A stretch of DNA of 64,000 nucleotides, from sequence record NC_031047.1. One strand, 5' to 3'. The translations under genes were made by a program, and so were the position numbers. Of the stretch, positions 3,773 through 58,275 are shown in pieces (position 1 is the stretch's first letter; each line of letters starts with the position of its first letter). The stretch comes from Escherichia phage HY03. The notes beneath the pieces were generated by a model. It saw nothing but the letters and a program-made list of their open reading frames with translations. It had not been told where the DNA came from and searched no databases.

Positions 3773-3973
3773 ATGTTAACACGTGAACAGTTTGAAAAAA
3801 TCATTAAATTAGCACGTGATGTTGAAATAGATTCATACCAATTGGCAGTTGAGCATTGTGAAGGATATTCATACGACGGTATAGAAGCAGCTAAAAAGGA
3901 TTTGGATAAATCTAAAGCTAAGTTAGTTCAATATCTTGAAATGATTAGGTGGAATAATGAAAACTGTAGTTAA
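3773..3973 (+). CDS. hypothetical protein
   Basis: 66-aa ORF. Confidence 0.5.
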   Translation: MLTREQFEKIIKLARDVEIDSYQLAVEHCEGYSYDGIEAAKKDLDKSKAKLVQYLEMIRWNNENCS

Positions 3974-12706: not shown

Positions 12707-13180
12707 ATGTTATTGACTGGCAAATTATACAAAGAAGAAAAACAAAAATTTTATAATGCACAAAACGGTAAATGCTTAATTTGCCAACGAGAACTAAATC
12801 CTGATGTTCAAGCTAATCACCTCGACCATGACCATGAATTAAATGGACCAAAAGCAGGAAAGGTGCGTGGATTGCTTTGTAATCTCTGCAATGCCGCAGA
12901 AGGTCAAATGAAGCACAAATTTAATCGTTCTGGCTTAAAGGGACAAGGTGTTGATTATCTTGAATGGTTAGAAAATTTACTTACTTATTTAAAATCCGAT
13001 TACACCCAAAATAATATTCACCCTAACTTCGTTGGAGATAAATCAAAGGAATTTTCTCGTTTAGGAAAAGAGGAAATGATGGCTGAGATGCTTCAAAGAG
13101 GATTTGAATATAATGAATCTGACACCAAAACACAATTAATAGCTTCATTTAAGAAGCAGCTTAGAAAGAGTTTAAAATGA
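12707..13180 (+). CDS. 49: endonuclease VII (Holliday junction resolvase)
   Basis: 157 aa; zinc-binding CLICQ...CNLCN; matches recalled T4 gp49. Confidence 0.9.
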   Translation: MLLTGKLYKEEKQKFYNAQNGKCLICQRELNPDVQANHLDHDHELNGPKAGKVRGLLCNLCNAAEGQMKHKFNRSGLKGQGVDYLEWLENLLTYLKSDYTQNNIHPNFVGDKSKEFSRLGKEEMMAEMLQRGFEYNESDTKTQLIASFKKQLRKSLK

Positions 13181-13714
13181 CAATTGAAAAAGAAATTGAA
13201 GGATTGATTCATAAAACTAATAAAGACCTTTTAAACGAGAATGCTAATAAAGATTCTCGTGTTTTTCCAACTCAACGGGACCTTATGGCCGGTATTGTGT
13301 CTAAACACATTGCCAAAAATATGGTCCCGTCTTTTATTATGAAAGCGCATGAAAGCGGAATTATTCACGTGCATGATATTGATTATTCTCCTGCTCTTCC
13401 GTTTACCAATTGCTGTTTAGTCGATTTAAAGGGGATGCTTGAGAATGGATTTAAATTAGGCAATGCTCAAATTGAAACGCCTAAATCTATTGGCGTTGCT
13501 ACTGCAATTATGGCACAAATTACAGCACAAGTTGCTTCACACCAGTATGGCGGAACTACATTTGCGAATGTCGATAAAGTTCTTTCTCCTTATGTTAAAC
13601 GTACATACGCTAAACATGTTGAAGATGCAGAAAAATGGCAAATCGCTGATGCGTTGAATTATGCTCAATCTAAAACAGAAAAAGATGTATACGATGCATT
13701 CCAGGCGTATGAGT
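13177..13714 (+). CDS. nrdD: anaerobic ribonucleotide reductase NrdD, exon 1
   Basis: N-terminal 179 codons plus one nt; exon ends in U that can wobble-pair with intron guide GCUCAU. Confidence 0.75.
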
Positions 13715-13925
13715 TAATTTAATTCAGGCTCATGTAAAACCGGTCTAAACGGGGAACCTCTCTAGTAGACAATCCCGTGCTAAATGTTCTTTTGAACTAA
13801 ATGCCTAACGACTAACCGTGATGAATGTAGCGGTGTAGAATAGAAGCTAATGCTATTCGAAACGGCCGGCATCGAAAGATGAAGATATAGTCTAATCTGC
13901 ATGGCGACATGCAGCAGTCATCTTG

Positions 13926-13933
13926 TATAAATA
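13926..13933 (+). promoter_or_regulatory. T4 late promoter box TATAAATA
   Basis: exact TATAAATA 29 nt upstream of the intron ORF ATG. Confidence 0.6.
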
Positions 13934-13962
13934 AGATTATCTTATGAATACGAGGTGAAACA

Positions 13963-14733
13963 ATGAAATGGATAAAAAGACGTTGTACTAAAATAAAAGA
14001 TAAAGACGCATTTACATACTTAGTTAAGTTTTCTAATGGCGACATTTATATCGGTTATAAAAAATTTAGAACAATTAAAAACAAGCCCACAAACTGGAAA
14101 ACTTACACAACGTCATCTAAGTATATAAATGAACGCTTAAAAACTGATACACCTACTAAATGGATAATTTTAAAAACATTTGATAGTTATAAAGATGCAT
14201 TAAAACATGAAGAAGAGGTCATACGTAAATATTTTTATAGCAAAAAATGTTTAAATAAATCCATAGGCGGTAAAAAGTTTTATAAGCATCCGGATACTGA
14301 AGAACATATTCAAAAATTAAGAGATGCTCATAAGGGTAAAGTGTTATCCGAATCTCATAAAAACAATATAAAATCTTCTGTGGCTGAATATTATGCTAAA
14401 AACAGAAGATCTAAGGAACATGTGCAAAATAATATCAATAGTCGAAAAAGTAAAAAACAAGTATCGATAAAGCTTAAAAATAAAACTTTTAGAAGTTTTA
14501 AAAAAGCAGCGGAATATTTAAATTGCACTGAAAGTGAAGTCGAAACTCATCCTCTTGTTTTGAGTATTAAGACTACTATTCATAAAGTTCCTGAATATGT
14601 GGTTGTTGACGGTATTAAGTATACGTCTTATATAGAAGCAGCTAAAGCGCTAAATTTTCATCCTAGCACTATAAAAGAACGTTGCATATCTATGGACTAT
14701 CCAAATTTTGTTGTTTCATATAAACGGGCATGA
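13963..14733 (+). CDS. I-TevII: intron-encoded GIY-YIG homing endonuclease
   Basis: 256 aa; GDIYIGYKK motif; inside the nrdD intron. Confidence 0.8.
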   Translation: MKWIKRRCTKIKDKDAFTYLVKFSNGDIYIGYKKFRTIKNKPTNWKTYTTSSKYINERLKTDTPTKWIILKTFDSYKDALKHEEEVIRKYFYSKKCLNKSIGGKKFYKHPDTEEHIQKLRDAHKGKVLSESHKNNIKSSVAEYYAKNRRSKEHVQNNINSRKSKKQVSIKLKNKTFRSFKKAAEYLNCTESEVETHPLVLSIKTTIHKVPEYVVVDGIKYTSYIEAAKALNFHPSTIKERCISMDYPNFVVSYKRA

Positions 14734-14747
14734 ATTTGCGACTCATG

Positions 14748-16039
14748 CTGAATATAATGATGAAGTAAATACACTTTTCAGCTCTAATGGACAGACTCCT
14801 TTTGTAACAATTACATTTGGTACGGGAACTGACTGGACTGAACGAATGATTCAGAAAGCAATTCTGAAAAATCGTATTAAAGGTCTTGGTCGTGATGGGA
14901 TAACTCCTATTTTCCCTAAGCTTGTTATGTTTGTTGAAGAAGGTGTTAATCTTTACAAAGACGATCCGAACTATGATATTAAGCAGCTTGCTCTAGAGTG
15001 CGCAAGCAAAAGAATGTATCCTGATATTATTTCAGCTAAGAACAATAAAGCTATCACTGGTTCATCTATTCCTGTTTCTCCGATGGGATGCCGTAGTTTC
15101 TTGAGTGTATGGAAAGATTCGACTGGTAATGAAATTCTTGATGGACGTAATAATCTTGGTGTTGTAACACTGAATCTTCCTCGTATCGCATTAGATTCTT
15201 ATATTGGAACACAGTTCAATGAACAGAAATTTGTTGAATTGTTCAATGAACGAATGGATTTGTGTTTTGAAGCTTTGATGTGTAGAATTAGTTCCTTAAA
15301 AGGAGTTAAAGCTACTGTTGCTCCTATTCTTTACCAAGAAGGTGCATTCGGGGTTCGTCTTAAACCTGATGACGACATAATTGAGTTATTTAAAAACGGT
15401 AGAAGTTCAGTGTCCCTAGGATACATTGGTATTCATGAATTGAATATTCTTGTCGGTCGTGATATTGGACAGGAAATTTTAACTAAAATGAATGCCCATC
15501 TTAAACAGTGGACTGAAAGAACTGGATTTGCTTTTAGTTTATATTCGACTCCTGCTGAAAACCTTTGTTATCGCTTCTGTAAACTTGATACAGAAAAATA
15601 TGGAAGCGTAAAAGATGTTACCGATAAAGGTTGGTACACTAATAGTTTCCATGTTTCAGTAGAAGAAAATATTACTCCGTTTGAAAAGATTTCTCGTGAA
15701 GCGCCATATCATTTCATTGCGACAGGTGGTCACATTTCTTATGTTGAACTTCCTGATATGAAAAATAACTTAAAAGGTCTTGAGGCCGTATGGGATTATG
15801 CTGCACAGCATTTAGATTATTTTGGTGTTAATATGCCAGTAGATAAATGTTTTACATGTGGAAGTACCCATGAAATGACTCCTACTGAAAACGGATTTGT
15901 TTGTTCTATTTGTGGAGAAACTGATCCTAAAAAGATGAACACCATAAGAAGAACATGCGGATATCTTGGAACTCCTAGCGTTGTCCCATGGAATTTAGGT
16001 AAAATGAAAGAAATGGTAAAACGAGTAAAACATGCATAG
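14748..16039 (+). CDS. nrdD: anaerobic ribonucleotide reductase NrdD, exon 2
   Basis: begins CUGAA (pairs with intron UUCAG); C-terminal glycyl-radical motif RRTCGYLG and Cys cluster. Confidence 0.75.
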
Positions 16040-16862
16040 GTATTATATAATTTATAAAATAACAAATATAATTAATTCAAAGGAATATATCGGTGCGCAT
16101 AGCACCGATAACATAAATGACGGTTATATGGGGTCAGGAACATTGATTCGTGCCGCTTTATTAAAATATGGTAGAAAAAATTTTAATAAAGAAATTTTAC
16201 ATGTTTTTGATAATGAAAAACAAATGTATGATAAAGAAGCTGAACTCGTAACCGAAGAGTATTGTCTAAAAGAAAATACATATAATATTAAACCTGGTGG
16301 CAAAGGTGGAACTGCCTATGAACAGACGCTTGAACATCGCCGCAAAAATAGCTTAGCAAATAAAGGTAAAAAGAGAACAGCAGAAACTAAAATAGCTATT
16401 TCAAATGCTTTAAAGAAATATAAACGTACGTCAGAACATCAAGCAAACTTAAATAAAGCTGTAAGCATAGCCATGAAGCGAAAAGATGTTAGAAGTAAAT
16501 TAACTGGAGCGCGTTCTGAGAAAGATAAATTATCTATATCAAATGGTGTTAAAAAATATTACAATTCTTTGAGCGAAGAAGAACGTGAACTTCATCGCAA
16601 GCGAATTATTGAAGGTAAAAAGAATTCTCCCATGACATTGGAATCCAGACAAAAGCTTTCAAAAGCTTTAAAAGGACTTCAAGTTGGTTCAAAAAATCCA
16701 ATGTATGGAAAAATTTCTCCAACTAGCAAAACCGTTTCAGTTGACGGTATTAAATATGATTCAATTAAAAAGTGCTCAAATGCCATAAAAGTTTCTAGAC
16801 ATCTTATACTAAAACGCTGTAATTCTACTGATGAAGCTTGGAAAAATTGGATATTATTATGA
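16032..16862 (+). CDS. free-standing GIY-YIG homing endonuclease (segH-like, at the T4 mobC position)
   Basis: 276 aa; YYIIYKITNIINSKEYIGAHS motif, NUMOD-like repeats, C-terminal HTH-like segment. Confidence 0.75.
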   Translation: MHRYYIIYKITNIINSKEYIGAHSTDNINDGYMGSGTLIRAALLKYGRKNFNKEILHVFDNEKQMYDKEAELVTEEYCLKENTYNIKPGGKGGTAYEQTLEHRRKNSLANKGKKRTAETKIAISNALKKYKRTSEHQANLNKAVSIAMKRKDVRSKLTGARSEKDKLSISNGVKKYYNSLSEEERELHRKRIIEGKKNSPMTLESRQKLSKALKGLQVGSKNPMYGKISPTSKTVSVDGIKYDSIKKCSNAIKVSRHLILKRCNSTDEAWKNWILL

Positions 16863-33224: not shown

Positions 33225-33965
33225 ATGATTAGTGACTCTATGACAGTTGAAGAAATCCGTCTTCATTTGGGGCTTGCATTAAAGGAAAAAGATTTCGTAG
33301 TTGATAAAACTGGCGTTAAAACTATTGAAATTATTGGCGCATCATTTGTAGCAGATGAACCGTTTATTTTTGGCGCTCTTAATGATGAATACATTCAGCG
33401 TGAACTTGAATGGTATAAGTCTCAAAGTCTGTTTGTTAAAGATATTCCAGGTGAAACACCGAAGATTTGGCAGCAGGTAGCATCTTCTAAAGGTGAAATT
33501 AACTCGAATTATGGTTGGGCTATCTGGTCAGAAGATAACTATGCTCAATATGATATGTGTTTAGCTGAACTTGGTCAAAATCCTGATTCTCGACGTGGTA
33601 TCATGATTTATACTCGTCCATCTATGCAGTTTGACTACAATAAAGATGGCATGTCAGATTTCATGTGTACGAATACAGTACAGTACCTGATTCGTGATAA
33701 GAAAGTCAATGCGGTTGTTAGCATGAGAAGCAATGATTGCTGGGCAGGCTATCGTAATGATTATGCTTGGCAAAAATACGTACTAGATAAATTAGTATCT
33801 GATTTGAATGCAGGCGACCCATCGCGGCAATATAAAGCAGGTTCTATTATATGGAACGTTGGAAGTCTTCATGTGTACGAAAATCAGTTTTATTTAGTTG
33901 ACCATTGGTGGAACACCGGTGAGACTCATATTGCTAAAAAGGATTATACTGGAAAATGGAAGTAA
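33225..33965 (+). CDS. 42: dCMP hydroxymethylase
   Basis: 246 aa; thymidylate-synthase-like fold; matches recalled T4 gp42. Confidence 0.9.
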   Translation: MISDSMTVEEIRLHLGLALKEKDFVVDKTGVKTIEIIGASFVADEPFIFGALNDEYIQRELEWYKSQSLFVKDIPGETPKIWQQVASSKGEINSNYGWAIWSEDNYAQYDMCLAELGQNPDSRRGIMIYTRPSMQFDYNKDGMSDFMCTNTVQYLIRDKKVNAVVSMRSNDCWAGYRNDYAWQKYVLDKLVSDLNAGDPSRQYKAGSIIWNVGSLHVYENQFYLVDHWWNTGETHIAKKDYTGKWK

Positions 33966-34597
33966 ATGTGCCGCATGTTTATAAGTATAAACATCCTAAA
34001 ACTAAAAAGTGGTATATAGGAAGTCATGATGGTCACAACCCGAATTATGATGGTTCGGGTGTAGTTTGGCAACATGCTAAAAAGAAATATGGAATAAAAT
34101 CCTTTAATAAAGAAATATTATATGAAGGACCAATGTTTAGACAGGTTGAAGAAATTATTTTAACTTGTTTAGATGCTGCTAATTGTCCGGATTCATATAA
34201 TTTAAAGAATGAAGCATGGGGAGGAAGTTTTCCAGGCAAATTAAATGGAATGTACGGTAAAAAACTATCTCCAGAAGAAAGATATAAGTGCGGAAATGCC
34301 TTTCGTGGAATCAAGCGTCCTGATCATTCTAAAAGAATGAAAGGCGAAGGTAATCCAATGTATGGTAAAAATGAGCAGGCATATGGAATTATAAATCGAG
34401 CCAAGGAAAATTCTGGTAAAACTTATGAAGAAATTTTTGGCGTAGAAAAAGCTAAAATAATTAAAGAAACGATGTCTAAAAATCGTAAAGGAAAACCTCA
34501 TAATTTGATAGAAAAAATATGTCCGCATTGCGGACTAAAAGGACGTGGGCCAAATATGACAAGATACCATTTTGACAAATGTAAGGCACTTAAATGA
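33956..34597 (+). CDS. free-standing GIY-YIG homing endonuclease
   Basis: 213 aa; HVYKYKHPKTKKWYIGSH motif; NUMOD-like repeats; C-terminal CPHCG...C zinc motif; overlaps gene 42 stop. Confidence 0.75.
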   Translation: MEVNVPHVYKYKHPKTKKWYIGSHDGHNPNYDGSGVVWQHAKKKYGIKSFNKEILYEGPMFRQVEEIILTCLDAANCPDSYNLKNEAWGGSFPGKLNGMYGKKLSPEERYKCGNAFRGIKRPDHSKRMKGEGNPMYGKNEQAYGIINRAKENSGKTYEEIFGVEKAKIIKETMSKNRKGKPHNLIEKICPHCGLKGRGPNMTRYHFDKCKALK

Positions 34598-35436
34598 TTC
34601 AATTCGTAATTCCAAGTTATCAGCGTGTAGGGGCAGTTTCTGCCCTTAATATGTTTCCGACTGATTATGAACCCCATATTGTAGTGCGTGAACACGAAGA
34701 AAAAGCTTATTATGATGCTTATGGGTCTAGAGCTAAAATTGTAACTATTCCTGATGATGTTAATGGAATTTCCGGTACTCGTAAAGCAATTACTGATATG
34801 TATGCAGGTCAACGAATCTGGATGATTGATGATGATACTACTATTCGTATGAGTTCAATACGAAAGAGAGACGATAAACGGCGCGTAGATAAAATTAATC
34901 AATTAACTCGTGAACAGTTCTATGAATTAATTCAATACGTTGAGGATGCTATGGATTGCGGGTATTATCACGGTCATGCTCGTCTACCAATTTTTAAAAT
35001 TACTTCATCTTGGGGTAATTATCGTGAAAACTCATATGGATTCACGAATACATGGTATGACCTCGGAAAACTTACGGCAGAACAAATTGGGTATGGAAAA
35101 ATTGATTTATGCGAAGATATGTATGCATTTCTCAATTTAATTAATCAAGGTTATCCGCATTTGGCCTTGTTCAAATATCTAGTTGTATCTGGAAAATCAC
35201 ACGCTCCCGGTGGGTGTAGTTCAATTCGTAGTAATTCTAAACATAATAGAGCGCTTGAGCAAATCAATAGAGAGTTTCCAGAGCAAGCTCGTTGGAAAAC
35301 TTCAAATATTGAAAAACGAAAATCGTTGGGTGAAGAAGACGAGCCATTAAAGGTTCTTCGCATGTGTGTTTCGCGTAAAGAAAAATCAGAAGCATTTCAT
35401 AAGTTTAATGCTATTCATCCAATAGCAGTTGATTAA
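34594..35436 (+). CDS. putative glycosyltransferase (not T4 beta-gt; possibly beta-alpha-gt-like)
   Basis: 280 aa; acidic IWMIDDD motif; occupies the T4 beta-gt slot but does not match recalled T4 beta-gt. Confidence 0.55.
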   Translation: MIQFVIPSYQRVGAVSALNMFPTDYEPHIVVREHEEKAYYDAYGSRAKIVTIPDDVNGISGTRKAITDMYAGQRIWMIDDDTTIRMSSIRKRDDKRRVDKINQLTREQFYELIQYVEDAMDCGYYHGHARLPIFKITSSWGNYRENSYGFTNTWYDLGKLTAEQIGYGKIDLCEDMYAFLNLINQGYPHLALFKYLVVSGKSHAPGGCSSIRSNSKHNRALEQINREFPEQARWKTSNIEKRKSLGEEDEPLKVLRMCVSRKEKSEAFHKFNAIHPIAVD

Positions 35437-35513
35437 TGCCTAAATTTATTGTGTTATAATTACCCTATCTTTAACCAGTGAGGAAAATATAATGATGCCT
35501 ATGGAAAAAATGA

Positions 35514-36443
35514 ATGTCTATTGCAGATTTAAAATCCCGTTTGATTAAAGCTTCCACTTCTAAAATGACTGCAGAGCTTACTAAAAGCAAGTTCTTTAAT
35601 GAAAAGGATGTGGTTCGTACTAAAATTCCAATGCTGAATATTGCAATTAGCGGTGCGTTGGACGGTGGCATGCAGTCTGGTTTAACTATTTTCGCAGGGC
35701 CTTCTAAACATTTTAAATCTAATATGTCACTGACAATGGTAGCAGCTTATTTGAATAAGTATCCTGATGCTATCTGTTTGTTCTATGACTCAGAGTTTGG
35801 TATCACTCCGGCTTATCTTAAGTCTATGGGTGTTGACCCGGAACGAGTAATTCATACGCCAATCCAATCAGTTGAACAGCTGAAAATTGATATGGTGAAT
35901 CAGCTTGAAACTATTGAGCGTGGTGAAAAGGTTATTGTATTCATCGACTCAATTGGTAATATGGCTTCTAAGAAAGAAACGGAAGATGCCTTGAATGAAA
36001 AATCTGTGGCAGATATGACTCGTGCTAAATCACTGAAGTCATTATTCCGTATTGTTACTCCTTATTTTAGTATTAAAAACATTCCATGTGTTGCGGTTAA
36101 CCATACAATTGAAACAATTGAACTGTTTAGTAAAACCGTGATGACAGGTGGTTGTGTTATTGCTGGTACTAAAATCCAGATGTCCGATGGTTCTACTAAA
36201 GCAGTTGAAGATATTCGTCCAGGTGAACGTGTTAAAACCATGGTCGGTGATAATGAAGTAACTTATGTTTGGGACCCAGAAACTCTGGCTGAAGGTACTC
36301 CTGAATGTTTCGAAATTGAATTCGAAGACGGTTATAAAGTAACTACTTCAGATACCCACAAGTTCCTGGTAATGGTTAAAGACATTCCAACTTGGGTTGA
36401 AGCTAAAGATTTAGTAGCTGGAATGGATTGTGTTGTAAGGTAA
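35514..36443 (+). CDS. uvsX: UvsX recombinase N-terminal extein (213 aa) fused to N-terminal intein fragment (96 aa)
   Basis: matches T4 UvsX to ...FSKTVMTGG, then CVIAGTKIQMSDGS (intein block A) and TSDTHKFLV (block B); ends at double stop TAA TAA. Confidence 0.85.
   Translation: MSIADLKSRLIKASTSKMTAELTKSKFFNEKDVVRTKIPMLNIAISGALDGGMQSGLTIFAGPSKHFKSNMSLTMVAAYLNKYPDAICLFYDSEFGITPAYLKSMGVDPERVIHTPIQSVEQLKIDMVNQLETIERGEKVIVFIDSIGNMASKKETEDALNEKSVADMTRAKSLKSLFRIVTPYFSIKNIPCVAVNHTIETIELFSKTVMTGGCVIAGTKIQMSDGSTKAVEDIRPGERVKTMVGDNEVTYVWDPETLAEGTPECFEIEFEDGYKVTTSDTHKFLVMVKDIPTWVEAKDLVAGMDCVVR
36153..36440 (+). other. intein N-terminal fragment (Hint blocks A and B)
   Basis: starts at Cys codon directly after extein TGG; 96 codons. 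Confidence 0.8.
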
Positions 36444-36446
36444 TAA

Positions 36447-36488
36447 ATATGGGTACCGGACTAATGTATATTTTTGAGGTACCCATAT
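36447..36488 (+). promoter_or_regulatory. stem-loop occluding the endonuclease start codon
   Basis: perfect 11-bp inverted repeat ATATGGGTACC / GGTACCCATAT, 20-nt loop; right arm overlaps the GAGG RBS and the AT of the ATG at 36487. Confidence 0.65.
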
Positions 36489-37209
36489 GAATTTTGTCTA
36501 TAAAATTGTGTTCAACGATAGAATTAAAAACGGCACTCCGCCGTATTACTACATAGGAAGCAAGACAAATGCTTCTTATGTAGACGGTAAGATTATTGAC
36601 GCCCGTGGTCGCGAGTACTATGGCTCATCGAGATATCCCGGATATCATGATTTTATCAATAATGTTACTGTTGAAATACTGGAGCAATATGATGATATTA
36701 AACATGCTAAACTGCTAGAGCGCGAAAATTTCTATCAGAAACAAGTAAACGTTAAAACAAATCCAGATTATTTTAATTTGGATTATGCTTGTGGACATAA
36801 TTCATATGCTAATGCTGATTTTGCATCATACAAGCATCATATAACAGGTAAATGTATTCGTCTTGAAAGAAACCATCCGCTTGTTAAATCTGGTGTGTAT
36901 GTTGGCGTCACAAAAGGCGTGAAATCTTCTGATGAACACCGTAAGCACATATCAGAAGGTATTACAGGAGAAAACAATGGGTTCTATGGTAAGAAACACA
37001 CCAAAGAAACAATTAATGAAATATCAGAAAAAGCAAAGAAAAGATTAAAGCATTCTCATCCTAGACAAAAAGGCGTTATCATAAACGGTATTGAATACCG
37101 GGGCGTCAGACCTGCTGCAAGAGCGCTGGGAATTAATCCTAACACAATTATCAACAAAATTAAAGCTAACACAAAAGGATGGGCTTATGCAGTAGATGCA
37201 CGTGGTTAA
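36487..37209 (+). CDS. free-standing GIY-YIG homing endonuclease between the split intein halves
   Basis: 240 aa; VYKIVFNDRIKNGTPPYYYIGSK motif; ENNGFYGKKHTKETINEISEKAKK and C-terminal segment resemble I-TevI linker/DNA-binding region. Confidence 0.8.
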   Translation: MNFVYKIVFNDRIKNGTPPYYYIGSKTNASYVDGKIIDARGREYYGSSRYPGYHDFINNVTVEILEQYDDIKHAKLLERENFYQKQVNVKTNPDYFNLDYACGHNSYANADFASYKHHITGKCIRLERNHPLVKSGVYVGVTKGVKSSDEHRKHISEGITGENNGFYGKKHTKETINEISEKAKKRLKHSHPRQKGVIINGIEYRGVRPAARALGINPNTIINKIKANTKGWAYAVDARG

Positions 37210-37351
37210 GGCATTCCAATGCGAGTTCTTTACGGGTTCGCACTACATTCGAAGATATGGTAAAAGAATTTGGAATGAACGCGACAATCAAGATTATGCT
37301 TTCATGAAATATGTATATTGAAACTAGCTACTACGAAACACAAGGTAAAGT

Positions 37352-37456
37352 ATGAAAATTAAATCTGTTAAATCTGTTGGTAAAAAAGAAGTCTATGATT
37401 TGTCTGTTGCTGACGTAGAGCATTATGTTTTAGAAAATGGTATCGTTACACACAAT
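37352..37456 (+). other. intein C-terminal fragment (Hint blocks F and G)
   Basis: ends ...THN followed by Thr as +1 extein residue. Confidence 0.8.
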
Positions 37457-37999
37457 ACAGGCGTAATGTATTCGGCTGATACTGTATTCATTATCGGTAA
37501 GCGTCAGATTAAAGATGGTTCTGATCTTCAGGGGTATCAATTTGTTCTAAATGTAGAAAAATCTCGTACCGTTAAAGAAAAAAGTAAATTCTTTATTGAT
37601 GTTAAATTTGACGGTGGTATCGATCCTTATTCTGGATTGTTAGATATGGCTCTAGAATTAGGATTTGTAGTAAAACCAAAAAATGGCTGGTATGCTCGTG
37701 AATTTCTTGATGAAGAAACCGGCGAGATGATTCGCGAAGAAAAATCTTGGCGTGCAAAAGATACCAACTGCACTACATTCTGGGGTCCTTTATTTAAGCA
37801 TCAACCATTCCGAGATGCTATTAAACGTGCTTATCAGTTAGGTGCTATTGATAGTAATGAAATTGTTGAAGCTGAAGTTGATGAATTGATTAACTCAAAG
37901 GTTGAAAAATTTAAATCTCCAGAAAGTAAAAGTAAATCAGCAGCTGATTTAGAAACTGACCTCGAGCAGTTAAGTGATATGGAAGAATTTAATGAATAA
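37352..37999 (+). CDS. uvsX: C-terminal intein fragment (35 aa) fused to UvsX C-terminal extein (180 aa)
   Basis: own ATG and AAGGT RBS; VYDLSVADVEHYVLENGIVTHN (blocks F/G) then TGVMYSADTVFIIGKRQ... matching T4 UvsX C-terminus. Confidence 0.85.
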   Translation: MKIKSVKSVGKKEVYDLSVADVEHYVLENGIVTHNTGVMYSADTVFIIGKRQIKDGSDLQGYQFVLNVEKSRTVKEKSKFFIDVKFDGGIDPYSGLLDMALELGFVVKPKNGWYAREFLDEETGEMIREEKSWRAKDTNCTTFWGPLFKHQPFRDAIKRAYQLGAIDSNEIVEAEVDELINSKVEKFKSPESKSKSAADLETDLEQLSDMEEFNE

Positions 38000-43881: not shown

Positions 43882-44400
43882 ATGGCTTACTTTAACGAAT
43901 GTAGTCAACTGATCGAAGGCGCTGATAAAGCTCAAAATGAATACTGGGATATTCTTGGTGATGAAAAAGACCCGCTGCAGGTAATGCTTGACATGCAGAA
44001 ATCTCTGCAGATTCGTTTAGCTAAAGATAAACCTGAATATAACCGTCATCCTGATGATTTGGCTACCGCAGGTGAAGTTGTTGATTGGCTGCGCAATCAG
44101 AAAGACTATATTGATGATGAATTCCGCGAACTTCTGACTTCTCTTGGTGGTATGAGCAATGGCGAAAAAGATGCATCTGCTGTATGGAAACCTTGGAAGT
44201 CGCAGCATGGTGAACGCCGTGAAACTCTGATTACTGATTTGTCTCCACAAGACCAATTGGAAATTAAATTTGAAATGATTGATATTCTCCATTTCGTTCT
44301 GAACATGTTCCAAGGTCTTGGTCTTACAGCAGAAGAAATTTTTAAACTTTATTATCTGAAAAATGCTGAAAACTTTGCTCGTCAAGACCGAGGTTATTAA
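43882..44400 (+). CDS. 56: dCTPase/dUTPase gp56 (MazG-like)
   Basis: 172 aa; matches recalled T4 gp56; track start is upstream. Confidence 0.85.
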   Translation: MAYFNECSQLIEGADKAQNEYWDILGDEKDPLQVMLDMQKSLQIRLAKDKPEYNRHPDDLATAGEVVDWLRNQKDYIDDEFRELLTSLGGMSNGEKDASAVWKPWKSQHGERRETLITDLSPQDQLEIKFEMIDILHFVLNMFQGLGLTAEEIFKLYYLKNAENFARQDRGY

Positions 44401-44600
44401 TGGCTCGTTTAAATAAACGTCAACTTAAGAAAGCCCACAAGAAACGTATTGACCAGCTATTTAAAAATTATGACAAGGAGCTCACATACGAGCTCTTATC
44501 TAATCAGCTCCACAAAGCTTACACAATTAAAACTGGACATATACAATTAGGTAAGGTGCATGAAGAAGCCTTAAAATTAATTATAGAGCATTCAAAATGA
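44400..44600 (+). CDS. hypothetical basic protein
   Basis: 66-aa ORF. Confidence 0.5.
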   Translation: MARLNKRQLKKAHKKRIDQLFKNYDKELTYELLSNQLHKAYTIKTGHIQLGKVHEEALKLIIEHSK

Positions 44601-44806
44601 AATTTGATTTTTATGCATGGCAAAAAGCCGGGAGACCGGCTAGTCGAGCATTTGGTTCTGATGGATATAATATTAGAGCTCATTGGAAGTTTAATGCTCC
44701 AGCCGATTATTCTCCGGTAATTATTAACGGTGATGTTGTTATATTAACTAAAATTGGGTATTTTAACGTTCCGCAAGAATTTATTATAAATAATCATGTA
44801 ATTTAA
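44597..44806 (+). CDS. hypothetical protein
   Basis: 69-aa ORF. Confidence 0.5.
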   Translation: MKFDFYAWQKAGRPASRAFGSDGYNIRAHWKFNAPADYSPVIINGDVVILTKIGYFNVPQEFIINNHVI

Positions 44807-55157: not shown

Positions 55158-56708
55158 ATGATTAAGAATGAAATTAAAATTCTGAGCGATATTGAACATA
55201 TCAAAAAGCGTAGCGGCATGTACATTGGCTCTTCTGCTAATGAAATGCATGAGCGCTTTCTGTTTGGTAAATGGGAAAGTGTTCAGTATGTACCTGGTCT
55301 TGTTAAGCTTATTGATGAAATTATCGATAACTCAGTAGATGAAGGTATTCGTACTAAGTTTAAATTCGCAAATAAAATTAATGTTACTATTAAAAACAAT
55401 CAAGTAACAGTTGAAGATAACGGTCGCGGTATTCCACAGGCGATGGTTAAAACACCTACCGGTGAAGAAATTCCTGGTCCTGTTGCTGCGTGGACTATTC
55501 CAAAAGCAGGTGGTAACTTCGGTGATGATAAAGAACGCGTCACTGGCGGTATGAATGGTGTTGGTTCTAGTTTGACAAACATTTTTTCTGTGATGTTTGT
55601 CGGTGAAACTGGTGATGGTCAAAATAATATTGTAGTTCGTTGTTCAAATGGCATGGAAAATAAATCATGGGAAGATATTCCCGGAAAATGGAAAGGAACT
55701 CGTGTTACTTTCATTCCTGATTTTATGTCATTTGAAACTAATGAGTTGTCCCAAGTTTATCTTGACATTACATTAGATCGTCTCCAGACACTTGCTGTTG
55801 TTTATCCTGATATTCAATTTACCTTTAATGGTAAAAAGGTTCAGGGCAATTTTAAGAAATATGCACGCCAATATGATGAACATGCTATCGTTCAAGAACA
55901 AGAAAATTGTTCTATTGCGGTCGGTCGTTCACCGGATGGTTTTCGTCAATTAACATACGTCAATAACATTCACACTAAGAATGGTGGTCATCACATTGAC
56001 TGTGTTATGGATGATATTTGTGAAGACCTTATTCCACAAATCAAACGTAAGTTCAAAATTGATGTAACTAAAGCACGTGTCAAAGAATGTTTGACTATCG
56101 TTATGTTTGTTCGTGATATGAAAAACATGCGATTTGATTCTCAAACTAAAGAACGACTTACTTCTCCTTTTGGTGAAATTCGTAGTCATATTCAACTTGA
56201 TGCTAAAAAGATTTCACGTGCTATTTTAAATAATGAAGCAATTTTAATGCCGATTATTGAAGCTGCTTTGGCTCGTAAATTGGCGGCAGAAAAAGCAGCA
56301 GAAACTAAAGCAGCTAAAAAGGCTTCTAAAGCTAAGGTTCATAAACATATTAAAGCGAATCTTTGCGGTAAAGATGCTGACACTACTCTTTTCTTGACTG
56401 AGGGTGATTCGGCTATCGGATATCTTATTGATGTTCGTGATAAAGAACTTCACGGCGGTTATCCATTGCGTGGTAAAGTTCTTAATAGCTGGGGTATGTC
56501 ATATGCTGATATGCTTAAAAACAAAGAACTATTTGATATTTGCGCAATCACTGGATTAGTTCTTGGTGAAAAAGCGTTTGAAGAAAAAGAAGACGGTGAG
56601 TGGTTTACTCTCGAACTAAATGGTGATACAATTATTGTAAATGAAAATGATGAAGTACAGATTAATGGTAAATGGATAACAGTAGGTGAATTACGAAAAA
56701 ATCTATAA
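55158..56708 (+). CDS. 39: DNA topoisomerase II large subunit gp39 (ATPase plus Toprim N-part)
   Basis: 516 aa; GHKL ATPase motifs; matches T4 gp39. Confidence 0.9.
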   Translation: MIKNEIKILSDIEHIKKRSGMYIGSSANEMHERFLFGKWESVQYVPGLVKLIDEIIDNSVDEGIRTKFKFANKINVTIKNNQVTVEDNGRGIPQAMVKTPTGEEIPGPVAAWTIPKAGGNFGDDKERVTGGMNGVGSSLTNIFSVMFVGETGDGQNNIVVRCSNGMENKSWEDIPGKWKGTRVTFIPDFMSFETNELSQVYLDITLDRLQTLAVVYPDIQFTFNGKKVQGNFKKYARQYDEHAIVQEQENCSIAVGRSPDGFRQLTYVNNIHTKNGGHHIDCVMDDICEDLIPQIKRKFKIDVTKARVKECLTIVMFVRDMKNMRFDSQTKERLTSPFGEIRSHIQLDAKKISRAILNNEAILMPIIEAALARKLAAEKAAETKAAKKASKAKVHKHIKANLCGKDADTTLFLTEGDSAIGYLIDVRDKELHGGYPLRGKVLNSWGMSYADMLKNKELFDICAITGLVLGEKAFEEKEDGEWFTLELNGDTIIVNENDEVQINGKWITVGELRKNL

Positions 56709-57504
56709 TGACTTAATAGCGCGGGGTAAAACTCGCGTTTCTAAATTTAAAGGTGAAATTCACCATATCCTTCCAAGATCAATGGGAGGTTCTGATGATA
56801 AAGAAAATTTGGTAAAACTGACTTTTCGTGAACACTTTTTAGCACATTTTCTACTATATAAAATTCATCGTAATCGTGAAATGGCATATGCGATGAATAG
56901 AATGTTAAACACTGAAAAATATTTACGTTCTAGTAAATTATATGAAATTGCTAGAATTTACCATCAAAGAGCAGTATCTGAATGGTCAAAAAACTTTATG
57001 AAAGATAAAGTTTTAATGAGAAGTATTAAATCGGGTAAATGCGCCTTATTAATTAAAGGATCATTTAACCCAAAGGAATGGTGCGGTGTTAATAAAGGTG
57101 TTAAGCTTCCTGGAATTAAAGGCATGACATGCTTTAAAAATGAAAAAGGCGAAGTTTTTCGTCTTCATGTTAATGATCCACGCATTAAAGCTGAAAAATT
57201 AGTTGGTATTGGAAATACTGTTGCTGCTACTGCAAAAGCAGCTGAACTTGAAAAAGCGAAACCATGGTATAATAAATCAGCGACAAATCCAGAGGCTGTA
57301 AAATTAATACCAAATTTATATGAATGGTACGTCACGAAATATGACCCCGATCATTATAAACGAACGGGAGTTGCTAAATGGAAATCAGTTAATAATATAA
57401 CTGTGAATTCAAAATTATTCGGCCGAGCATTTAATGAATTTAAACGCGGCTGGATTCCTGATGAAAAGTTCTACGAGGTGTATAATGAAATTTGTAAAAA
57501 TTGA
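56686..57504 (+). CDS. mobA: HNH homing endonuclease
   Basis: HNH motif EIHHILPRSMGGSDDKENLVKLTFREHFLAH; inserted between 39 and 60; start (GTG 56686) uncertain. Confidence 0.65.
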   Translation: MNYEKIYNDLIARGKTRVSKFKGEIHHILPRSMGGSDDKENLVKLTFREHFLAHFLLYKIHRNREMAYAMNRMLNTEKYLRSSKLYEIARIYHQRAVSEWSKNFMKDKVLMRSIKSGKCALLIKGSFNPKEWCGVNKGVKLPGIKGMTCFKNEKGEVFRLHVNDPRIKAEKLVGIGNTVAATAKAAELEKAKPWYNKSATNPEAVKLIPNLYEWYVTKYDPDHYKRTGVAKWKSVNNITVNSKLFGRAFNEFKRGWIPDEKFYEVYNEICKN

Positions 57505-57622
57505 TTCTTCTAGCATTGATATGAAAAAATATAAATCGCAGAACAATGTCCGTCGTTCTATTAAATCCTCTTCAATGAACTATGCGAATGTCGCTATTAT
57601 GACAGACGCAGATCACGATGGA
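57485..57622 (+). CDS. 60: topoisomerase II subunit gp60, codons 1-46 (before bypass)
   Basis: MKFVKIDSSS...DADHDG ending at take-off GGA followed by TAG. Confidence 0.85.
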
Positions 57623-57672
57623 TAGCCTTCGGGCTATCTATAGAAATACCTCATAATTAAGAGATTATTGGA
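57620..57672 (+). promoter_or_regulatory. gene 60 translational bypass element (take-off GGA, 50-nt gap, landing GGA)
   Basis: GGA UAG then UAGCC-UUCG-GGCUA hairpin; landing GGA exactly 50 nt after take-off; reading frame resumes UUA GGU UCU. Confidence 0.85.
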
Positions 57673-58017
57673 TTAGGTTCTATTTATCCTTCTCTGCTCG
57701 GATTTTTTAGTAATTGGCCAGAATTGTTTGAGCAAGGACGAATTCGTTTTGTCAAAACTCCTGTAATCATCGCTCAGGTCGGTAAAAAACAAGAATGGTT
57801 TTATACAGTCGCTGAATATGAGAGTGCCAAAGATGCTCTACCTAAACATAGCATCCGTTATATTAAAGGACTTGGTTCTTTGGAAAAATCTGAATATCGT
57901 GAGATGATTCAAAACCCAGTATATGATGTTGTTAAACTTCCTGAGAATTGGAAAGAGCTTTTTGAAATGCTCATGGGAGATAATGCTGACCTTCGTAAAG
58001 AATGGATGAGCCAGTAG
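57673..58017 (+). CDS. 60: topoisomerase II subunit gp60, codons 47-160 (after bypass)
   Basis: LGSIYPSLLGFFSNWPELFEQGRIRFVK... matches T4 gp60. Confidence 0.85.
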   Translation, partial: LGSIYPSLLGFFSNWPELFEQGRIRFVKTPVIIAQVGKKQEWFYTVAEYESAKDALPKHSIRYIKGLGSLEKSEYREMIQNPVYDVVKLPENWKELFEMLMGDNADLRKEWMSQ

Positions 58018-58046
58018 TTTACTTTACCACAAGGATGTGGTATAAT
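58017..58046 (+). promoter_or_regulatory. T4 early promoter
   Basis: GTTTAC overlapping gene 60 stop, 18 nt, TATAAT. Confidence 0.7.
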
Positions 58047-58071
58047 TAATTGGGCAAATGAGGATATTGAA

Positions 58072-58275
58072 ATGAAATCATATAGAGTAAATTTAGAACT
58101 TTTTGATAAAGCAGTTCATCGAGAATATAGAATCATTCAACGCTTTTTCGATATGGGAGAAGCCGAAGAATTTAAAAACCGCTTTAAGGATATTAGAGAT
58201 AAAATTCAATCCGACACCGCAACTAAAGATGAACTACTAGAAGTTGCTGAAGTTATTAAACGCAATATGAATTAA
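58072..58275 (+). CDS. hypothetical protein (rIIA.1 position)
   Basis: 67-aa ORF. Confidence 0.55.

Follow-up and report, generated by a model that had tools for sequence, protein, structure and literature searches.

A T4-type gene 60 bypass cassette at the 3′ end of a MobA element in Escherichia phage HY03

A MobA element splits the topoisomerase II large-subunit gene of HY03

The stretch of DNA analysed here, hereafter the window, comprises 64,000 nucleotides of Escherichia phage HY03 (NC_031047.1). It belongs to a Tequatrovirus genome and, in reverse orientation, runs collinearly with T4 from map position 62.3 kb through 0 to 165.6 kb; its aligned segments are 81-98% identical to T4, mostly 93-98%. 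At the locus of interest, the gene order 39 - mobA - 60 - rIIA.1 - rIIA is the same as in T4, and the large subunit of topoisomerase II is encoded in two parts by genes 39 and 60. Upstream of and around the split, the following features are found.

55158..56708, + strand: gene 39, 516 aa, the N-terminal part of the topoisomerase II large subunit, with Pfam HATPase_c and DNA_gyraseB
56576..57681, + strand: MobA mobile element, 1106 nt, within the ancestral topoisomerase gene, where it replaces 64 parental nt
56686..57504, + strand: mobA, an intact HNH homing endonuclease ORF of 272 aa, with the extent of the homing endonuclease CDS annotated in HY01

Residues 1-473 of the gene 39 product align to the 605-aa large subunit (Topo2L) of the insert-free sister phage vB_EcoM-UFV09, after which the similarity breaks, and the last ~43 codons of gene 39 (from 56577) are a C-terminal extension encoded by the element. 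The element borders are set by a base-by-base comparison with an insert-free allele (L003), in which identity ends at 56575 and resumes at 57682. The HY01 element described by Manning & Atkins (bioRxiv 10.1101/2022.08.31.505936) has the same length and likewise takes the place of 64 parental nt. The mobA ORF shares its 5′ end with gene 39 and its 3′ end with gene 60, each time in a different frame, and its Pfam HNH match is weak (E = 7e-4, under the curated cut-off). At its 3′ end, the element supplies codons 1-46 of gene 60, the last ~15 of which (the homR region) are 76% identical to the parental sequence that they replace, followed by a coding gap and by 9 nt after the landing codon (TTA GGT TCT versus parental TTA GGA AGC). 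Since the parental Gly codon is GGT, both GGA codons that flank the hop in gene 60 belong to the element. The features of the MobA-element class are all present, namely a length of ~1.1 kb, a split TOPRIM domain, C- and N-terminal extensions, an HNH endonuclease, homR and a bypass cassette.

MobA is reported to nick insert-free alleles (Bonocora 2011, PMC3182709, as cited in bioRxiv 10.1101/2022.08.31.505936), and the 50-nt insert is reported to destroy the site that MobA recognizes, so that a carrier genome escapes the nuclease it encodes. By analogy with the T4 experiments, the gap may likewise protect the HY03 genome from MobA. The MobA cassette of HY03 is intact and presumably still mobile. 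Whereas mobA is intact in the window and in HY01, the copy in the T4 record AF158101 (L001:2387-3205) differs from these two by 11 single-base insertions, mostly of G within 56818-57025, and is therefore annotated as a pseudogene plus "gene 60.1"; the insertions may be genuine decay of the gene in laboratory T4 or mistakes in the old sequence. Escherichia phage CJY920 (PQ349265; L010:1010-1895) has a second MobA-like HNH gene, encoding 265 aa (MNYRKIYDKLIAAAKNR...HHILPKSMGGS), which is inserted directly after gene 60 and before rIIA.1.

Gene 60 consists of two reading frames around a 50-nt coding gap

The gene 60 region itself is laid out as follows.

57475..57478, + strand: Shine-Dalgarno sequence GAGG, read from the sequence and separated by 6 nt from the start codon of gene 60
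57485..57622, + strand: gene 60 ORF1, codons 1-46 (MKFVKIDSSSIDMKKYKSQNNVRRSIKSSSMNYANVAIMTDADHDG), beginning with the ATG at 57485
57620..57622, + strand: take-off codon GGA (Gly46), read from the sequence
57623..57672, + strand: 50-nt coding gap, starting with UAG (57623-57625) and ending with the landing GGA (57670-57672)
57661..57663, + strand: mini Shine-Dalgarno GAG (gap positions 39-41), with 6 nt between it and the landing codon
57673..58017, + strand: gene 60 ORF2, from the resume codon UUA through codons 47-160 to the stop codon TAG (58015-58017)

The original prediction placed a UAG directly after the GGA of codon 46 (...DADHDG), a second GGA exactly 50 nt after the first and an open frame thereafter that leads to a 160-aa product. 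All of this is borne out: the GGA-UAG arrangement is seen at 57620-57625, the start-to-start distance between the two GGA codons (57620-57622 versus 57670-57672) is exactly 50 nt, and the coordinates of the resumed frame are correct. Matched take-off and landing codons, readable by one tRNA, are thereby placed around a non-coding gap, whose internal triplets include GGG at positions 9-11, UAG at 19-21, UAA at 36-38 and GAG at 39-41, with the landing codon at 48-50. The spacer between the mini Shine-Dalgarno and the landing GGA is the AU-rich hexanucleotide AUUAUU, within the 5-7 nt looked for. Stop codons close all three frames within the gap, so no single frameshift can join ORF1 to ORF2, and a simple +1 or -1 frameshift is ruled out.

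Joining 57485-57622 with 57673-58017 yields a 160-aa protein in which ...MTDADHDG is followed directly by LGSIYPSLLGFFSNWPELFEQGRIRFVK..., with ORF2 encoding the remaining TOPRIM domain and the C-terminal associated domain (Pfam TOPRIM_C, E = 6e-8). Across the junction, this protein is collinear with homologues that are made without interruption. It aligns to residues 472-605 of UFV09 Topo2L, a single 605-aa protein that reads ...NIAIMTDADHDGLGSIYPSLLGFFSNWPE..., with 96% identity and no gap at the junction, and the insert-free sister phage has ...IMTDADHDGLGSIYPSLLGFF... within one ORF. The alignment to T6 gp39 (PDB 8YLU) is also gapless across the junction, with 96% identity, and human Top2, yeast Top2, GyrB and ParE align continuously over residues ~29-89 of the joined protein. 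Compared with T4 gp39-gp60 (PDB 8YO3), 158 of the 160 residues are identical, and ORF1 matches 44 of the 46 residues of the nascent chain in PDB 5NP6, a 70S ribosome before bypassing (take-off complex). The bare GGA-UAG-N44-GGA pattern is not rare, being present in 14 of 100 shuffles of the window; because it is this common by chance, the significance of the arrangement rests on the identity of the gap with that of T4 and on the gapless alignment of the joined protein to uninterrupted homologues.

RNA structures and nascent peptide correspond to the T4 bypass signals

Three stem-loops and one peptide signal are associated with the gap.

57521..57571, + strand: nascent-peptide bypass signal KKYKSQNNVRRSIKSSS, codons 13-29 (T4 counterpart KKYKLQNNVRRSIKSSS)
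57583..57610, + strand: 5′ stem-loop, 9 nt ahead of the take-off codon; dG -10.1 kcal/mol, z = -2.6; identical to T4
57618..57641, + strand: take-off (extended) stem-loop, 10 bp with a UUCG tetraloop; dG -14.7 kcal/mol, z = -3.7; identical to T4
57687..57738, + strand: 3′ stem-loop, a forward slippage barrier that begins 14 nt past the landing codon; dG -13.9, z = -1.9; identical to T4

The UAGCC-UUCG-GGCUA hairpin noticed at the outset is real and forms, at 57623-57636, the top of the 10-bp take-off stem, that is, the A-site stem-loop. Only 1 of 200 shuffles folds as well as the complete take-off stem-loop, and the take-off codon sits in the 5′ arm of this stable, tetraloop-capped structure. 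An intrinsic terminator is rejected as an explanation of the hairpin, as no U-tract follows it and a terminator scan reports none there. No Rfam family matches the element at gathering thresholds, nor does any match 57400-57800 at E <= 1, which reflects the library rather than the element.

The nascent-peptide signal is present as well, and the undefined position that had been left in its motif was apt: 16 of the 17 residues are as in T4 (KKYK-LQNNVRRSIKSSS), with S at the position of T4 L18. Residues Y16, Q19, V22, R24 and S28, which are important according to the literature, are all kept. The T4 recoding signals and their spacings are given in a figure legend of bioRxiv 10.1101/2024.12.09.627546, and each signal listed there is found in the window at the published spacing, including the matched GGA codons, the UAG, the UUCG stem-loop, the 5′ and 3′ stem-loops, the GAG and KKYK..QNNVRRSIKSSS.

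The HY03 cassette is a clade 1 cassette nearly identical to that of T4

In a megablast search of 57300-58200 (901 nt) against 50,697 GenBank phage records, Escherichia phage HY01/PEC04 matches with 99.3% identity and T4 (AF158101) with 98.7%. Both AF158101 and KF925357 (HY01) annotate the same 50 nt as a non-coding translational bypass region and the CDS as a two-part join. In a three-way alignment, the gap is identical at 50 of 50 positions to misc_feature 2803-2852 of AF158101, and identity with T4 extends over 57551-57746, which includes the gap and the take-off, 3′ and 5′ stem-loops. Over the 533 nt of gene 60, the differences from T4 amount to two non-synonymous changes, V11I and L18S, both in the nascent peptide, and eight synonymous ones. 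The element is thus the classic T4 ribosome-hopping element (Huang 1988; Weiss 1990), as originally recognized; it is already known and already annotated in close relatives, and it differs from that of T4 trivially.

The expectation that gene callers report two fragments also holds, in that most related GenBank records annotate two separate CDSs. The correct annotation of the gene 60 CDS is join(57485..57622,57673..58017), and the main value of the present analysis lies in this annotation, gene callers cutting gene 60 in two; to the bypass mechanism, the window adds nothing new.

The closest allele is that of HY01/PEC04, which belongs to clade 1 of Manning & Atkins (bioRxiv 10.1101/2022.08.31.505936) and shares with the window the I11/S18 peptide, an intact mobA and the 1106-nt element in place of 64 parental nt. 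HY01 differs in its gap, which has C17 and U20 instead of the T4-type U17 and A20 of the window. The window cassette is plain clade 1. The MobA-type cassettes of other clades, from Salmonella, Proteus, Acinetobacter and Aeromonas phages and from metagenomes, share the insertion site in the TOPRIM motif and likewise combine matched take-off and landing codons with a stop or hungry codon, a stem-loop and a mini Shine-Dalgarno, yet they use the codon pairs GGU, GAC or GAU, have other loops and have gaps that can be as short as 20 nt. In mitochondria of Magnusiomyces capitatus, the Byp elements resemble the cassette in being bypassed inserts (27-55 nt) with matched codons and a take-off hairpin, but their sequences are unrelated, they act in mitochondrial translation and they have no link to homing endonucleases.

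Proposed mechanism and alternative explanations

[quoted passage not shown] That ribosomes hop in HY03, and how efficiently they would do so, is inferred from experiments in T4, and the mechanism outlined here is modelled on T4 by sequence identity (PMC7026636, PMC5462505, bioRxiv 10.1101/2022.08.31.505936 and bioRxiv 10.1101/2024.12.09.627546). Ribosomes would start at the ATG at 57485 and read 46 codons, while the nascent peptide (KKYK-S-QNNVRRSIKSSS) would grip the exit tunnel and anchor the peptidyl-tRNA-Gly. Once GGA 57620 occupied the P site and UAG the A site, formation of the UUCG stem-loop in the A site would block the release factor, whereupon the peptidyl-tRNA-Gly would leave the mRNA and remain in the ribosome. 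The hyper-rotated ribosome would then slide over 50 nt, driven by EF-G/GTP and by the 5′ and extended stem-loops as they refold in its wake. Landing would be guided by pairing of the GAG at 57661 with the anti-Shine-Dalgarno and by the 3′ stem-loop, the tRNA would re-pair with GGA 57670, and decoding would restart at UUA 57673 to give the 160-aa gp60, which would assemble with gp39 and gp52 into topoisomerase II. In T4, ~50-60% of ribosomes complete the hop and the remainder release the 46-aa peptide (PMC7026636).

Were there no hop, translation would instead produce a 46-aa peptide ending at UAG 57623 and a separate 97-aa C-terminal fragment from TTG 57724, the first start codon of the downstream frame. 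Fragments of this kind are annotated in many GenBank records of relatives, and the 46-aa peptide is a real by-product in T4, where roughly half of the ribosomes terminate or drop off (PMC7026636). The two-fragment annotations, though, are gene-caller output and not evidence, and no Shine-Dalgarno sequence precedes TTG 57724. The 97-aa product would also be without residues 47-63 (LGSIYPSLLGFFSNWPE), a 17-residue segment that is 100% conserved in uninterrupted homologues and falls in the stretch that aligns to distant topoisomerases, and a start at this TTG would part the DxDxD acidic motif from the remaining TOPRIM fold. We consider independent translation of the two frames very improbable.

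To the removal of the 50 nt from the RNA, by a small intron or by processing, with ordinary translation thereafter, we assign almost no weight. Self-splicing introns do occur in T4 relatives, and nrdD of the window has a group I intron, but introns of group I or group II are far longer than 50 nt, and 57400-57800 has no Rfam match even at the relaxed cut-off. Moreover, Huang et al. 1988, as cited in PMC7026636, are credited there with the finding that the identical 50 nt of T4 stay in the mRNA untranslated. Just as hard to credit is a gene 60 that is a pseudogene, or a gap that is an assembly or sequencing artefact. An in-frame stop together with a frameshifting insertion resembles a disabled gene; against this, the same 50 nt are found in 40 independent phage records, and the 11 phages aligned besides T4 show substitutions at two gap positions and, in one record, a 1-nt insertion. 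The flanking ORFs are intact and, in the compared stretch, the change downstream of the gap is synonymous only, indicating that gene 60 is under purifying selection.

Natural variation of the cassette

The cassette, defined as the N-terminal extension plus the gap, occurs in exactly 40 of the 50,697 GenBank phage records, and ~590 further Tequatrovirus-like records match the flanking topoisomerase sequence alone. T4 and 11 further cassette-bearing phages were aligned. Throughout these 11, the GGA pair, the UAG, the UUCG hairpin, the GAG and the resume codon are invariant, and substitutions are confined to gap positions 17 (U/C) and 20 (A/U), corresponding to 57639 and 57642 in the window; across the 13 clade-1 sequences, likewise, just two gap positions carry substitutions. 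Variants at these positions are seen in HY01, 215Ecol030PP, LH2, ELT1, F26 and pSe_SNUABM_01. With C17, the G.U pair that involves the first take-off codon base in the take-off stem becomes G-C, and U20 abolishes the second in-frame UAG of the gap.

The I11/S18 peptide is common to the window, HY01 and pSe_SNUABM_01. Each of the two peptide types occurs with each of the two gap types, showing that peptide and gap do not co-vary. No GenBank phage record is identical to the window over 57485-57700 (216 nt), the best having 2 mismatches, and the window cassette is in this sense a trivially new allele, one that joins the HY01-type peptide (I11, S18) to the T4-type gap (U17, A20). S18 lies between Y16 and Q19 in the tunnel-interacting motif. 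L18 is part of the KKYK-LQNN motif, hence the efficiency could differ from that in T4, although we think it unlikely that S18 in this haplotype measurably alters how often bypassing succeeds or how much full-length gp60 is made relative to the 46-aa peptide; if it did, the allele would be a natural tool for dissecting the cooperation of peptide and RNA signals. The L18S change is probably neutral, because L18 is absent from the reported tunnel contacts and mutationally critical residues, and both the I11 and S18 substitutions are also found in the viable isolates HY01 and pSe_SNUABM_01.

Salmonella phage GRNsp7 (ON720975; L017) has a 51-nt gap, with an extra T (U) between the GAG and the landing GGA that gives a 7-nt spacing. 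The downstream frame of GRNsp7 is kept only if the codon defines the landing site, so that the extra nucleotide would be tolerated by a hop and not by a frameshift; it could also be a homopolymer sequencing error. The natural variants described here were all drawn from GenBank phage records, IMG/VR contributing none: a scan of IMG/VR with a flexible-gap pattern anchored on the coding flanks, which does match the window, gave no match, and a scan for GGATAGCCTTCGGGCTAT gave six loci, all of them unrelated intergenic hairpins without topoisomerase context.

Other intervening elements in the window

The set of homing-endonuclease genes in the window differs from that of T4. T4 mobB, mobD and segF have no counterpart in the window (junctions near 3960, 21370 and 44363-44785). 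A 276-aa GIY-YIG/NUMOD3 ORF (16032-16862) lies between nrdD and nrdG, the place of the HNH gene mobC in T4, and a 213-aa seg-like ORF (33956-34597) follows gene 42. The nrdD gene (13177-16039, + strand) contains a group I intron with an I-TevII-like GIY-YIG ORF (13963-14733). A search confined to this region matches the intron to RF00028 (13679-13914, 70.9 bits); a whole-window Rfam scan at gathering thresholds reported nothing, its default filters having missed the nrdD intron.

The stretch 33957-37466 has no megablast match to T4 over its whole length. In it, 34594-35436 (+ strand) encodes a 280-aa Pfam TAGT (TET-associated glycosyltransferase) protein (E = 4.5e-10) at the place where T4 has beta-glucosyltransferase. 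The gene for the RecA-like recombinase UvsX (35514-37999, + strand) is "fractured" by a split intein and a GIY-YIG endonuclease gene and consists of three ORFs.

35514-36443, + strand: UvsX residues ~1-213, then a Hint-like N-intein of 96 aa (CVIAGTKIQ...)
36487-37209, + strand: free-standing GIY-YIG/NUMOD3 endonuclease
37352-37999, + strand: 35-aa C-intein (...VLENGIVTHN), then T and the remaining UvsX

Judging from these ORFs, trans-splicing would give ...SKTVMTGG-TGVMYSADTVF..., collinear with T4 SKTVMGGGTGPMYSADTVF. The arrangement fits the "fractured gene" class of Dassa et al. 2009 (PMC2677866), the only paper that a literature search for UvsX together with a split intein found. It is present in 7 of 590 matching phage records, in which it is annotated as two recombinase fragments.
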